Source: a virus
Taxonomy: Duplodnaviria; Heunggongvirae; Uroviricota; Caudoviricetes
DNA: 4,348 nucleotides
Virus record (IMG/VR): IMGVR_UViG_3300007747_000094
Reading direction: 5' to 3' (one strand)
The notes beneath the pieces were generated by a model, which searched no databases, was not told where the DNA came from, and was given only the letters and a program-made list of their open reading frames with translations. The position numbers were made by a program, and so were the translations under genes. Positions 443 through 4,333 of the stretch are shown one piece after another; the first letter of the stretch is position 1; the number at the start of each line of letters is the position of its first letter.

Positions 443-449
443 GACTCCT

Positions 450-527
450 GTGGATTGATCCAGTAATGACCTCAGAATTCCATCTGGATTTGTTCAGAAC
501 GCTCGGTTGCCGCCGGGCGTTTTTTAT
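450..527 (+). ncRNA. oop: oop-like antisense RNA (about 77 nt), complementary to the 3' end of cII mRNA, ending in an intrinsic terminator
   Basis: Sequence 450-527 closely matches the lambda oop RNA as I recall it. Terminator hairpin 500-519 (CGCTCGG / loop TTGCCG / CCGGGCG, one G-U pair) followed by TTTTTTATT (520-528). Antisense to cII codons for the C-terminal residues. Confidence 0.7.
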
Positions 528-768
528 TGGTGAGTCCATCAAGCGCATACTTAAAAGCCCTGCTAATCGGACTGATGTCTGATGCCATTCCGAAAGCACA
601 CAAGACCGAAGCAATAAATCTCCAGTCCGTTCTGCTTATCTTCGATTCATGACAGCCAATCATCTTTGCCAGACCGCGCTGGGTAATAGCTGACAGATTG
701 ATAAGTAAATCTGTTTCTGCGCGATCAACGTCACGCTGTGATAGTTTGCTGTAACTTGTTCTTTCCAT
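472..768 (-). CDS. cII: Transcriptional activator CII (98 aa), mosaic: divergent N-terminal two-thirds, lambda-identical C-terminus
   Basis: ORF track 472..768(-). The C-terminal 21 residues LTNKKRPAATERSEQIQMEF match lambda CII as I recall it. The N-terminal part (MERTSYSKLSQRDVDRAETDLLINLSAITQRGLAKMIGCHESKISRTDW...) is only distantly similar. Position between cro and O is as in lambda. Confidence 0.9.
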   Translation of the reverse strand: MERTSYSKLSQRDVDRAETDLLINLSAITQRGLAKMIGCHESKISRTDWRFIASVLCAFGMASDISPISRAFKYALDGLTNKKRPAATERSEQIQMEF

Positions 769-778
769 TTCTTAAGAT
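746..778 (+). promoter_or_regulatory. PRE-like CII-dependent promoter (establishment promoter reading toward cI)
   Basis: TTGC (746-749) - N6 - TTGT (756-759) flanking a -35 position, then 13 nt, then -10-like TAAGAT (773-778). This is the same geometry as lambda PRE (TTGC-N6-TTGC, 13 nt, AAGTAT), and it lies inside cII codons 3-8 on the opposite strand exactly as in lambda. Confidence 0.45.
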
Positions 779-853
779 TTCCAATAGTGAATAGTTAGTT
801 GAAAGGTATGCATGGAAACGCATATGGCCTTAGTTGGTCAGATATCTTGGAAC

Positions 854-1242: not shown

Positions 1243-1896
1243 ATGAAATGGTATGAACTGGCTAGATCCAGAATGAAAGAGCTCGGCATAACTCAAGAGA
1301 AGTTAGCCGAAGAGCTAGGTATGACGCAGGGTGGGATTGGACACTGGTTGCGCGGATCTCGTCATCCATCTCTTAGTGATATTGGTGTGGTGTTTAAATA
1401 CCTTGGTATTGATAACATATCATTCAACCACGACGGGACATTTTCACCTGTTGGCGAATACTCATCGGCCCCAGTTAAAAAACAATATGAGTACCCTGTT
1501 TTTTCTCATGTTCAGGCTGGGATGTTCTCTCCAGAACTCAGAACCTTTACCAAAGGCGATGCGGAGAGATTGGTAAGCACAACCAAAAAAGCCAGTGACT
1601 CTGCATTCTGGCTTGAGGTTGAAGGTAACTCAATGACCGCACCAACAGGTTCCAAACCCAGCTTTCCTGACGGGATGTTAATTCTGGTTGACCCTGAGCA
1701 AGCTGTTGAGCCCGGCGATTTCTGCATAGCCAGACTTGGTGGTGATGAATTTACCTTCAAGAAACTGATCAGGGATAGCGGTCAGGTGTTTCTACAGCCA
1801 CTAAACCCACAATACCCAATGATCCCATGCAATGAGAGTTGTTCCGTTGTGGGGAAAGTTATCGCCAGCCAATGGCCTGAAGAGACGTTTGGGTGA
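1243..1896 (+). CDS. cI: CI-type prophage repressor: N-terminal HTH DNA-binding domain plus C-terminal LexA/S24 autocleavage domain
   Basis: ORF 1195..1896(+). Start chosen at ATG 1243 (AAGGA 1229-1233 about 9 nt upstream); ATG 1237, ATG 1201 and TTG 1195 are alternatives. HTH: [20 protein letters not shown]. The C-terminal domain has the S24 catalytic motifs (Ser in EGNSMTAP, Lys in FTFKKL) and ends ...[13 protein letters not shown]..., closely resembling the P22 C2 repressor C-terminal domain as I recall it. Confidence 0.9.
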
Positions 1897-1935
1897 TGAA
1901 ACCACTTTTATCTACAATTTACAGGGCGGTAAACA

Positions 1936-2493
1936 TTGGCAAAAATAGATGATTATCAGCCAAGCCAAGTAGAAGTTGATAAAGTACTTTATTGTAAAAA
2001 AATAGTTAACTTTTCTGGCGTTAAATGGAAACAGAAACCAAGTCGCTCTGATATGTGGCTACAAGCCCATATCATCCCCTTGGATGAGGATTGTATACCT
2101 ATACAAGGGCTAAAGTTTGAACTGAAATGGAAACCAGATCAGGATTCAGAACCTGATGACCCGATTTCTTACCCTAAAATAAATATTATTGCTTTCTATC
2201 ATAACAAGAGGGTTTTCGCGGTAGATACCTATCACTTTGACAAACACACGAATAGTTACAAGGTCGATCATCCGAAGTACCAAGATATCATTTACGGTGC
2301 TCACTACCATGTATACTATGAAGAAGCTGGATACTATAGTGATAGAATAGCGTTTCCAATCGAAGATGACATAAACCCAGATGACCTGGTAGGGTATTGG
2401 AATTACTTCTGTAAACATCTGAACATAACTTACTCTGGGAGAATACCTTTACCGCTTGAAGATGAGTCGGGGCAAATGGGGTTTGGAATATGA
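1936..2493 (+). CDS. Hypothetical protein A (185 aa), first gene of a two-gene cassette downstream of cI; no recognisable domain
   Basis: ORF 1936..2493(+). The only in-frame start before codon 40 is TTG 1936 (GGGCGG 6 nt upstream); ATG 2053 is the alternative. 39-nt gap after the cI stop with no terminator. Acidic, Tyr/His-rich soluble protein (..AFYHNKRVFAVDTYHFDKHTN..GAHYHVYYEEAGYYSD..). AT-rich relative to flanking phage genes (the first 60 nt are about 27% GC by hand count). Confidence 0.6.
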   Translation: MAKIDDYQPSQVEVDKVLYCKKIVNFSGVKWKQKPSRSDMWLQAHIIPLDEDCIPIQGLKFELKWKPDQDSEPDDPISYPKINIIAFYHNKRVFAVDTYHFDKHTNSYKVDHPKYQDIIYGAHYHVYYEEAGYYSDRIAFPIEDDINPDDLVGYWNYFCKHLNITYSGRIPLPLEDESGQMGFGI

Positions 2494-3242
2494 TGTGCTC
2501 AACAGTGATCTCACAACTAGGTTTCGAATGCCATCCAATAGGCAAGACCTTGAGAATTATCAGTCCATTCACTTACTGTGATGATGGAGAGCATGTCGGT
2601 GCCTTTATCCGTGAAGTCAATGGTAGGTATTTAGTTAGTGACAGATGCGATGCCTTAATGAATATGGAGGCAAGAGGGATCTCGCTTACCAAAAAACGAC
2701 TTGATGAGATACGACAATTACTGCTTAAAGAAGGCGCAGAACTCAATGCTCGAGGAGAAATCATTGCTTGGGCAACAGAAAAGGATGTCGGTGCGATTAC
2801 ATCGAACATAATTAGAGCTGGTATACTCGCATCAACTTTGTCGTTAGACTGGTATCAGCCAGTTCAAGCTGAAAAGTTTGAAAGTATGGTTATTGATTAT
2901 CTATATCACACAGAGCTTAGAGACGCACTTTCTCTTCGTGAAAACGTATATGGCTTGAGTGGACATCAAATTACCGTCCCTGTAACAATAAAAACCGACA
3001 TACCTAAATACGTTTTTACATCAAGCGTGAAACACGGAGGAAGCTGGAATAGTGCTTACTCATTGCTTGGGAAACTAATTGATCTTAAAGCTTCAAGTGA
3101 GGAGTATAACAACAGATTTGTTGTTATAGACAGCGAAGCAATTGGTGATCAAATGCAACAACTCTCCTTACTCTTCCATGAATCAAGCCAAGTTCTACCA
3201 TTCTCCAAAAGAGAGACTTGGGTTAAGAGACTTGCAGCATAA
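2490..3242 (+). CDS. Hypothetical protein B (250 aa), second gene of the cassette, translationally coupled to protein A
   Basis: ORF 2490..3242(+). ATG 2490 overlaps the stop of ORF A (ATGA at 2490-2493). No obvious transmembrane segment or catalytic motif that I recognise. Followed 6 nt later by an intrinsic terminator. Confidence 0.7.
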   Translation: MMCSTVISQLGFECHPIGKTLRIISPFTYCDDGEHVGAFIREVNGRYLVSDRCDALMNMEARGISLTKKRLDEIRQLLLKEGAELNARGEIIAWATEKDVGAITSNIIRAGILASTLSLDWYQPVQAEKFESMVIDYLYHTELRDALSLRENVYGLSGHQITVPVTIKTDIPKYVFTSSVKHGGSWNSAYSLLGKLIDLKASSEEYNNRFVVIDSEAIGDQMQQLSLLFHESSQVLPFSKRETWVKRLAA

Positions 3243-3247
3243 TACAA

Positions 3248-3273
3248 CCCGGCCTCAGCGCCGGGTTTTCTTT
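3248..3273 (+). terminator. Rho-independent terminator ending the cI / ORF A / ORF B transcription unit
   Basis: CCCGGC (3248-3253), loop CTCAGC (3254-3259), GCCGGG (3260-3265), then TTTTCTTT (3266-3273). Confidence 0.75.
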
Positions 3274-3446
3274 GCCTCACGTTCGCCCACCTAAAAACAC
3301 ATAACCAATTATATTTATTGAAAAATAAATAGATGCAACCCACTAAACCACGCAATTCTGATCTCTCCTTACATCGCCGAGGCAATACATCCACGCTAAA
3401 AAACAACACTATTAAATACAAAGCGTTATAAAAAACCACGCCAACT

Positions 3447-3489
3447 TACAACAAATTGTATTGATCTTGTAAAGTACATATCGTACTAT
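3447..3489 (+). promoter_or_regulatory. PL/OL-like region: candidate leftward early promoter with overlapping operator-like elements
   Basis: -35 TTGATC (3461-3466), 17-bp spacer, -10 TACTAT (3484-3489), about 47 nt upstream of nutL boxA and about 190 nt upstream of N. Overlapping symmetric elements TACAACAAATTGTA (3447-3460), TGTAAAGTACA (3468-3478) and TACATATCGTA (3475-3485) resemble the OR elements. Confidence 0.45.
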
Positions 3490-3535
3490 TTAACCGTCAG
3501 CAGGACGCTGGAAGCCAAATGGAACAGACTGGCAG

Positions 3536-3580
3536 GCTCTTTAAACAACGTCGACTCTCGACTACGTGGCTGAAAAGCCA
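3536..3580 (+). promoter_or_regulatory. nutL-like N-utilisation site (boxA + spacer + boxB hairpin) in the N leader
   Basis: GCTCTTTAAACAA (3536-3548; boxA-like, close to rrn boxA GCTCTTTAACAA), spacer with CTACG, then TGGCT-GAAA-AGCCA (3567-3580; 5-bp stem, GAAA loop). Aligns with nutR: boxA GCTCTTT-AACAACG, spacer ending CTACGT, boxB stem-GAAA-stem. Confidence 0.65.
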
Positions 3581-3678
3581 GATCACCCAACCACATAAGC
3601 TGTGGGATGCAATGCCGAAGCAACCGTCTCAGGAGGAGCTTCGAGATTGCATCGCCAAAGTTTATTCGGGAGGAATCC

Positions 3679-3951
3679 ATGTCCAGAAAAACAGAATTTA
3701 AAGGCACCGCAGCTTCTCGCCGTAGAGCTCGTCGCGCAAATCTGCAAAGTCAGGAGGCGATCAGCTCCGACAAGCTACACAGGCCAACCCCTTCACGAGT
3801 GGTCTTGCAATGCAAGCTCAAACCAGCAATGAGAGCAGAAGTGATAACTCTGACAACGTTGACCAGAAAATATGAAGGTTCAACTTGTCTTCCGAACGTA
3901 GCTCTTTACGCGGCAGGCTACCGGAAATCAAAACAACTGACGGCGAGATGA
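3679..3951 (+). CDS. N: N-type transcription antiterminator (P22 gene 24-like), 90 aa, with an arginine-rich boxB-binding motif
   Basis: Internal ATG 3679 of ORF 3607..3951(+), with GGGAGGA SD 3668-3674. Protein MSRKTEFKGTAASRRRARRANLQ... carries an N-terminal arginine-rich motif. C-terminus ...LPNVALYAAGYRKSKQLTAR resembles the P22 N (gp24) C-terminus as I recall it. Located downstream of PL and nutL as expected. Confidence 0.85.
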   Translation: MSRKTEFKGTAASRRRARRANLQSQEAISSDKLHRPTPSRVVLQCKLKPAMRAEVITLTTLTRKYEGSTCLPNVALYAAGYRKSKQLTAR

Positions 3952-3967
3952 TAAATTCATTTGCTAA

Positions 3968-4333
3968 TTACTTGTTTTTGCCATGCTTATCCTGATAGCA
4001 CTCATGTCTATAGCTTTCAGGGATAACGAAACGGTCGGTATCAGGATATCCAACAGCAGGAGGCCTTCGAACGAGGAGTCCTTTTTTGAGCAATGAAATT
4101 GATTCATGAGCGCCCTTTTCCGTTTGTAGCTGGTTATTAGCGGCTACAGCGAATGCCAAATACGCTCTTTCTCCAAGAGTTAACGAATCAAACAAATCTT
4201 GCACATATTTTTCTTCTTTAGATTTGCGCTTCTGAGCAGCGAATACCTCAATTCTTTCAGTCACAGCGTGATAAGCGGAATTAACAACGCCGTTAAGCAC
4301 ATAGCTAACGCAAAACAACAGGATGTAATACAT
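3968..4333 (-). CDS. Hypothetical protein with a hydrophobic N-terminal segment, convergent with N; the reading frame stays open to the window end, so the true start may lie beyond 4348
   Basis: ORF 3968..4333(-), 121 aa, starting MYYILLFCVSYVLNGVVNSAYHAV (probable membrane helix). No in-frame stop between 4334 and 4348. Its stop lies 17 nt from the N stop on the opposite strand. Function not recognisable from sequence. Confidence 0.5.
   Translation of the reverse strand: MYYILLFCVSYVLNGVVNSAYHAVTERIEVFAAQKRKSKEEKYVQDLFDSLTLGERAYLAFAVAANNQLQTEKGAHESISLLKKGLLVRRPPAVGYPDTDRFVIPESYRHECYQDKHGKNK

Follow-up and report, generated by a model that had tools for sequence, protein, structure and literature searches.

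An overlapping two-gene cassette in the rexAB slot of lambdoid prophages is a candidate anti-phage defence module

In phage lambda, the slot between the repressor gene cI and the terminator t_imm holds rexA and rexB, two genes that exclude rival phages. What do related prophages carry in this slot when it is not rexA and rexB, and does the alternative cargo also act against other phages? Here, we address this question with a 4,348-nucleotide (nt) stretch of DNA from a virus of the class Caudoviricetes (IMG/VR record IMGVR_UViG_3300007747_000094; the whole stretch is hereafter the window), in which two overlapping genes, which we denote A and B, follow the prophage repressor gene. A sequence-only reading of the window had proposed this cassette as a candidate module for anti-phage defence or superinfection exclusion. 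We find that the cassette stands exactly where lambda has rexA–rexB, that the pair keeps its order, its overlap and its linkage to a repressor in distant relatives, and that B, and more weakly A, match the two parts of one catalogued defence candidate. We put the probability that the cassette is anti-phage defence cargo expressed in the lysogen at roughly 55%.

The cassette and its slot

The window is the immunity region of a lambdoid Escherichia coli phage. The upstream gene of the operon, a cI-type repressor gene (positions 1201–1896, + strand; HTH_3 and Peptidase_S24 by Pfam, supported by the RefSeq coding sequence and by blastn against lambda), is followed on the same strand by A (1936–2493, 185 amino acids) and B (2490–3242, 250 amino acids), whose stop and start codons overlap as ATGA (2490–2493). 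RefSeq gives both open reading frames (ORFs) the same coordinates (A, WP_001062368.1; B, WP_000968518.1). An in-frame TAA at 1930–1932 leaves the TTG at 1936 as the only possible start of A, and the N terminus that begins there, MAK, is kept in homologues. The 39-nt gap between cI and A (1897–1935) contains no terminator-like site and shows no more structure than shuffled versions of it (z = +0.49). Downstream of B lies an intrinsic terminator homologous to t_imm (3246–3275, + strand), in which a stem at 3246–3267 of eight pairs, six of them G–C, is followed by TTTTCTTTG (fold −17 kcal/mol, z = −2.9). The common strand, the terminator-free gap and the shared t_imm-like terminator imply that cI, A and B are co-transcribed, presumably from the OR/PRM/PR control region between cro and cI (1126–1200), which is recognized by its position and by repeated AATACA-type operator-like sequences. 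The ATGA overlap is predicted to couple A and B translationally.

Most of this layout had been described by the sequence-only reading (the two ORFs with their overlap, the gap without a terminator, the strong terminator after B and, by inference, transcription together with cI), and the ORF calls, RefSeq, terminator scan and folding agree with it. Two of its statements need adjustment. The terminator had been placed just before PL/OL, but the presumed OL/PL region upstream of N (3410–3500, from lambda synteny and operator-like inverted repeats) lies about 140–200 nt past it. The cassette had also been called AT-rich; its lower G+C content is real (39.5%, against 44.6% in the rest of the window, 46.3% in cI and 49.5% in N), but the difference is modest.

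Comparison with lambda by blastn delimits the slot. Window positions 1486–1897 match the 3′ half of lambda cI up to and including the stop codon (93% identity), positions 3246–3367 align at 90% to lambda DNA that starts directly past the rexB stop codon, and nothing aligns between 1897 and 3246. Because the alignment ends at 1897 and restarts at 3246, the 1,348-base-pair segment 1898–3245 substitutes for rexA–rexB, its ends lying only a few bases from the stop codons on either side (left junction at 1897/1898, right junction at 3245/3246); the rexAB position claimed earlier becomes an exact slot. Phages with the same cI allele lose homology at the same two junctions, the upstream break falling at 1894–1898, and carry other cargo between them: a 283-amino-acid protein in phage 2G7b (2495–3346) and a 173-amino-acid protein in Stx2a_WGPS8 (2467–2988), neither with a Pfam or PADLOC match, and a 285-amino-acid NYN-domain protein in phage 2B8. 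With rexAB as a further occupant, these alternatives support the cargo hotspot of the sequence-only reading. The cI-to-t_imm interval is a cargo-swap slot with conserved recombination flanks, for which the conserved 3′ half of cI and t_imm probably supply the homology arms.

The repressor gene is itself a mosaic: its C-terminal S24/oligomerization half (1486–1896) has 93% DNA identity to lambda cI, and the N-terminal half, which binds DNA, shows no nucleotide similarity to lambda. The cargo proteins of 2G7b and Stx2a_WGPS8 are further unexplored candidates of the same slot.

A repressor-linked pair and its family

Linkage to a repressor extends well beyond the window. Wherever the genomic context is long enough for a judgement, a prophage repressor gene stands upstream of the pair in the same orientation; such repressor-linked pairs occur in E. 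coli, Salmonella, Klebsiella, Aeromonas and Thorsellia, in a metagenome contig and in Pseudomonas phage phPA-G. At least six repressor types stand upstream, including repressors of 128–131 amino acids that consist of a helix-turn-helix domain only. The pair follows directly after the repressor gene in all but two of these contexts: in phPA-G, a 216-amino-acid hypothetical gene separates it from a CI-like repressor, and in Thorsellia there is a gap between the two, occupied in one assembly by a small ORF. In a set of 5,426 complete E. coli genomes, 239 carry the clade of the window and 61 carry a second clade (query coverage of at least 80%). The cassette is common in B2-type strains, extraintestinal as well as commensal, among them Nissle 1917, ATCC 25922, NU14 and APEC O18. 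In 50,697 phage records, B occurs in one Pseudomonas phage and in five distinct E. coli phages, the latter represented by seven records; a tblastn search of B against 72,556 plasmids gave no match.

The architecture of the pair is conserved over long distances. Close homologues (59–84% identity) come from Salmonella, Klebsiella, Yersinia, Erwinia, Serratia, Photorhabdus, Providencia, Pectobacterium and Xenorhabdus, and more distant ones (47–54%) from Aeromonas and Thorsellia. Among relatives that are 22–70% identical, all nine lineages retain the order A then B and the stop/start overlap, which is ATGA in eight and 13 nt long in the second clade; behind distant A homologues (22–36% identity), the overlapping gene is always of the DUF1828 type and encodes about 231–255 amino acids. 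In the second clade, whose A and B are 43% and 52% identical to those of the window, the cassette fills the same slot but stands behind two other immunity types, of which one combines a lambda-type Cro with a 237-amino-acid repressor. Five distant A proteins (22–36% identity) are each encoded directly ahead of a gene of 231–252 amino acids or of one cut by the contig end; a DUF1828 match is recorded for three of these following genes, and one distant pair adjoins a resolvase on a mobile element. The D3-like Pseudomonas aeruginosa phage VB_PaD_phPA-G (PP083311.1) carries the same pair, with A (2920–3504) absent from the deposited annotation; this A ends in GQMGFDV and overlaps by ATGA an annotated DUF1828-type gene (3501–4256). 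An exhaustive profile search of 1.84 billion cluster representatives returned only 20 A-family clusters, which marks a small family.

From locus to locus, the pairwise identities of A track those of B (r = 0.78). In both genes nonsynonymous divergence (dN) is far below saturated synonymous divergence (dS), so that A and B are both under purifying selection; with dS above 2 or undefined, only the dN values and their ordering are used here, and no dN/dS ratio. In each of five comparisons at a shared locus, dN is higher for A than for B (A/B: 0.18/0.09, 0.47/0.30, 0.51/0.43, 0.68/0.40 and 0.52/0.42). Despite the conserved MAK N terminus, A starts with a non-ATG codon (TTG or GTG) in six of the nine lineages, a pattern that suggests selection for low translation of the upstream gene. 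Such starts lie at 1936 in the window and at 5471, 6459, 1062 and 64 in loci L003, L019, L012 and L013, respectively.

Along the cassette, DNA identity between the two E. coli clades is only about 65% in the middle and much higher in the first roughly 44 nt of A and the last roughly 35–135 nt of B (1898–1979 and 3108–3245 in the window, compared with L003 and L005). This distribution suggests that recombination between cassette variants occurs within the genes as well as at the slot junctions.

A search against the PADLOC-DB profiles connects the pair to defence loci outside prophages. Its sole matches are PDC-M24B for B (E = 4.7e-10, residues 2–249 on profile positions 4–254 of 256) and PDC-M24A for A (E = 4.8e-4, 18 bits, residues 104–163 on positions 79–134 of 148). 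PDC-M24B is matched by all 13 aligned B-family members (best E = 4.1e-15) and PDC-M24A (one of three models, E < 0.01) by 9 of 19 A-family members. PDC-M24 corresponds to cassette CAS_00098, composed of FAM_00129 followed by FAM_00065, and belongs to a set of 145 candidates, called untested by their authors, that were predicted from copies lying within BREX, DISARM or type I restriction–modification (RM) loci (Payne et al. 2024, bioRxiv 10.1101/2024.01.29.577857). The cassette table of the same study also pairs FAM_00065, the B family, with a different upstream family. Embedding in BREX, DISARM or RM loci is how PDC-M24 was discovered and is not a requirement for homology. Since the two proteins map, A only marginally, to the two components of a single candidate in the same order, the matches lend independent support to the relationship and tie the family to non-prophage defence loci. 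From these profile matches, we read the cassette as a prophage-carried, divergent offshoot of the PDC-M24 candidate family. The proposal of a defence candidate is strengthened by this result, and its implied novelty is lessened, the wider family having already been catalogued.

The two proteins and the surrounding window

The sequence-only reading had recognized no family for either protein; both in fact belong to catalogued families. B passes the Pfam threshold for DUF1828 (33.5 bits against a cut-off of 22, residues 26–110), a family that 12 of the 13 B-family members match, and is a member of PHROG 1960 (function unknown); NCBIfam gives no match for it. The AlphaFold model of B has a predicted local distance difference test (pLDDT) score of 81.6 and two domains; in the N-terminal DUF1828 part, its structural elements span residues 1–116. 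The C-terminal domain (residues 129–250) is of the α/β type, with the order α-β-β-β-α-β-α-β, and the model contains the α-β-β-β-α-β core of the restriction-endonuclease-like fold. The best fold matches of the model are PD-(D/E)xK nucleases; a second group comprises DUF2170 and several type III secretion chaperones, which we take to be a YbjN/chaperone-like fold. From topology, the chaperone-like fold would correspond to the DUF1828 domain and the endonuclease-like fold to residues 129–250. The C-terminal domain of a distant B aligns to positions 1–86 of the 87 in DUF1829, a single sub-threshold match (E = 0.027) that hints at the usual DUF1828–DUF1829 architecture. Invariant residues of B are P26, D32, D51, G89, E90, W121, F130, V134, S157, G158, W186, D198, P237 and W244; H159 and R209 are nearly invariant, and position 214 keeps an acidic residue (D or E). 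An internal duplication in B was considered and rejected (hhalign probability 0.1% between its N- and C-terminal domains).

A is a soluble, β-rich protein and a member of PHROG 2017 (function unknown). Its match to DUF6978 covers residues 104–164 only and, at 22 bits, falls under the Pfam threshold of 29.6; 11 of 19 A-family members show such weak matches (best E = 1.1e-4). DUF1828, DUF1829 and DUF6978 are all function-unknown families. Across the A family, K22, W31, R92, D97, N106, G121, H123, H125, F158 and P173 are invariant and H104 nearly so; the Asp/Asn/His cluster within this set (D97, N106, H123 and H125, with H104) is of a pattern typical of a metal-binding or catalytic site. The C-terminal tail (SGQxG/L) is conserved and at the same time predicted to be disordered, as is usual for docking peptides. 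Membrane segments and signal peptides are absent from both proteins (maximum 19-residue Kyte–Doolittle mean 0.45 for A and 1.19 for B).

For A, a fold search found no structural relative in the Protein Data Bank (PDB) or among predicted viral structures, NCBIfam gave only a meaningless glutathione-peroxidase match (E = 0.15), and PDB sequence searches with both A and B, as single proteins and as family profiles, gave nothing meaningful. With the A profile, an apparent match to SAKe6AC, a designed Kelch propeller (E = 4e-12), is an artefact in which six weak 'RIYAVGGYDG..H.N' repeats, each with E of at least 32, are summed. Four enzyme classes were also rejected for A: an HUH endonuclease, for which there is an H-Y-H on a strand but neither a conserved catalytic tyrosine nor a Rep-like fold match; a cupin, since HxHxxxE occurs in close relatives only and no barrel is matched; a His-Me/HNH nuclease, there being no β-β-α unit; and an LAS metallopeptidase, whose motif order is reversed and whose fold is not matched.

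Around the cassette, the window follows a lambda-like order. On the − strand, ahead of cI, lie the beginning of O and its iterons (from position 1), cII (472–768) and cro (910–1125); N (3679–3951, + strand, by Pfam) and a sieB-like gene (3968 to beyond 4348, − strand) lie beyond the terminator. RefSeq has a hypothetical ORF of 60 amino acids at 3519–3701 that overlaps the start of N. The noncoding stretch 3290–3450, from the terminator to the presumed OL, is A-rich with a strong excess of C over G (GC skew down to −0.39). On the + strand, antisense to the 3′ end of cII, a promoter-like site (414–442) and a strong terminator (496–523) match the lambda oop antisense RNA by position, inside a segment (1–534) that is 98% identical to lambda; an Rfam scan of the whole window, these elements included, returned nothing at E ≤ 0.01.

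The window is 100% identical to phages ev207, ev017, PhiR57_1 and PhiR63_2, and likewise to the defective prophage adjoining icd in E. coli Nissle 1917, save for one single-nucleotide polymorphism and one 48-nt deletion. Relative to ev207 and Nissle 1917, the polymorphism lies at 812 and the deletion is an in-frame loss at 3995/3996 of 16 residues, IRFAGKADSLMDELIA, near the C terminus of the SieB-like protein. The cassette stretch alone (1900–3290) is also 100% identical in ATCC 25922, NU14, APEC O18 and further strains.

The only phage-resistance study of the Nissle 1917 prophage (Bury et al. 2018, PMC5987069) dealt with a gene outside the cassette. It reported protection of E. coli K-12 from lambda and stx phages by a gene called 'phage repressor (pr)', EcN_1294. 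The primers of that study map to window positions 445–814 and identify 'pr' as the cII homologue, not cI: the quantitative PCR primers match exactly at 513–531 and 554–571, and the cloning primers match at 445–465 and 796–814 with one mismatch each. Overexpressed CII could drive infecting phages into lysogeny and so reduce plaquing. The cassette genes are listed there only as the hypothetical proteins EcN_1291 and EcN_1292, in a supplementary table (PMC5987069).

Possible functions and comparison with known systems

How might the cassette act? We propose that A and B would form a two-protein cytoplasmic module, borne as swappable cargo in the repressor operons of lambdoid and other temperate phages and made at low level in the lysogen from the cI transcript (PRM/PRE), that would protect the lysogen, and hence the prophage, from other phages. 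B would be the constant core and effector, combining a DUF1828 domain of probable chaperone/YbjN-like, protein-binding fold with a C-terminal domain of probable restriction-endonuclease-like fold, and A, with its invariant Asp/Asn/His cluster, would be the faster-evolving specificity subunit; the higher dN of A and the alternative upstream partner of the B family suggest this division of roles. The disordered C-terminal tail of A may dock on B in an A–B complex. Infection by a foreign phage would be sensed via A, and sensing would release or activate B, which would then target nucleic acid and halt the development of the phage, perhaps at the expense of the host cell. A nuclease mechanism through the non-canonical endonuclease-fold domain of B seems to us rather unlikely. 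Equally tentative is the idea of a mechanistically new prophage immunity, in which A would be a sensor or enzyme of novel fold with an invariant Asp/Asn/His site, B a DUF1828 partner whose nuclease-like domain is without the canonical active site, and protection the result of a chemistry or interaction that no described defence system employs, the whole being portable behind any repressor and protecting about 5% of E. coli strains, Nissle 1917 among them.

Several points weigh against this account. The case for a defence role is positional and comparative, drawn from the slot and the family, and the family had already been flagged as a candidate. The matches of A to PDC-M24A and DUF6978 are weak, cover about 60 residues and fall below the Pfam threshold. 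In the family alignment of the B C-terminal domain, the canonical D...(D/E)xK motif is not conserved: the place of the first Asp, where strand 2 begins, is taken by H159; close relatives keep K173, which distant members have lost; and strand 3 carries no invariant acidic residue. A literature search on the cassette proteins, DUF1828, DUF6978, PDC-M24 and the PHROGs found no relevant paper. Cargo of repressor operons can, moreover, serve purposes other than defence, as RexA reportedly does in modulating the lysis–lysogeny switch (PMC11077077).

This last point leads to the reading of A and B as accessory regulators of the prophage's own lysis–lysogeny switch or induction. Their strict linkage to a repressor, over at least six repressor types and six genera, would suit such a role, as would their replacement of rexAB, given that RexA reportedly tilts the lambda switch towards lysis (PMC11077077). 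The same cassette, however, stands behind unrelated repressors and operators, a portability not expected of a switch component; its PDC-M24 relatives are embedded in BREX, DISARM and RM loci outside prophages; and neither protein resembles RexA or has a recognizable DNA-binding domain. We regard this role as improbable, slightly more so than that of an addiction or toxin–antitoxin-like module, which is itself unlikely. In such a module, one protein would be toxic and the other neutralizing, and the pair would stabilize the prophage or the cargo slot. The coupled genes in conserved order, the nuclease-like fold of B, the distant pair next to a resolvase and the weak non-ATG starts of the upstream gene in six of nine lineages, which suggest tightly limited expression, all fit. 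Set against them, neither A nor B matches a known toxin or antitoxin family in Pfam, NCBIfam or PADLOC, and the architecture of a small DNA-binding antitoxin is missing, both proteins being large (185 and 250 amino acids) with conserved polar clusters. The category also overlaps abortive-infection defence and is hence not truly exclusive of the defence role.

Lowest in our ranking is lysogenic-conversion cargo unrelated to phages, such as a factor for host physiology, stress or colonization. The frequency of the cassette in extraintestinal and commensal B2-type strains, together with its probable expression in the lysogen, is compatible with this role. Against it, both proteins are predicted to be cytoplasmic, without signal peptide or membrane segment, and match no metabolic or virulence family; the family is linked to defence loci, and the alternative occupants of the slot include the rexAB exclusion genes and a nuclease-like NYN protein.

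Anti-phage defence in the lysogen is the reading that we prefer. That repressor operons carry defence cargo in a hotspot, and that the wider family is a catalogued candidate, was known already. What is new is the exact replacement of rexA–rexB at sharp swap junctions, the repressor-linked prophage branch across six genera, the deep conservation of coupling, and a first structural reading of both proteins, including an A without a structural relative. Should the cassette prove to be a working defence, it would give DUF1828 and the DUF1829-like and DUF6978-like families their first function and validate the PADLOC candidate PDC-M24, and the cI-to-t_imm interval would become a plug-in slot whose sharp junctions could be mined for more systems. 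Such a defence would also matter for phage therapy, for probiotic engineering and for explaining the phage resistance of carriers such as the probiotic Nissle 1917 and the reference strain ATCC 25922.

Comparison with known systems places the cassette more closely. It shares with lambda RexA–RexB the slot and flanks, from the cI stop codon to t_imm on the cI strand, and a cargo of two genes. The proteins differ, as the sequence-only reading had stated: hhalign gives RexA probabilities of 0.4% with the A profile and 0.2% with the B profile, with no match to the RexA family, and a probability of 0.06% for B against RexB. As RexB is a polytopic membrane protein and neither A nor B contains a hydrophobic segment, membrane depolarization is unlikely as their mechanism. 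BstA of prophage BTP1 is likewise repressor-adjacent defence cargo made in the lysogen (PMC8585504); it differs in being a single protein with its own anti-BstA DNA element, and has no homology to A or B, whose only PADLOC matches are to PDC-M24. A looser precedent is GiPD474, a defence gene of the Gifsy-1 prophage (PMC12724215). On the side of mechanism, PD-(D/E)xK effectors with an N-terminal regulatory domain (Can2/Card1, NucS and Bax1) are among the closest systems that we can name. The nearest relative by family is PDC-M24, which shares the adjacent, co-directional A-then-B arrangement found in the same order in all related loci. PDC-M24 was defined from BREX, DISARM and type I RM loci, whereas the branch described here lies in prophage repressor operons in every longer context inspected.

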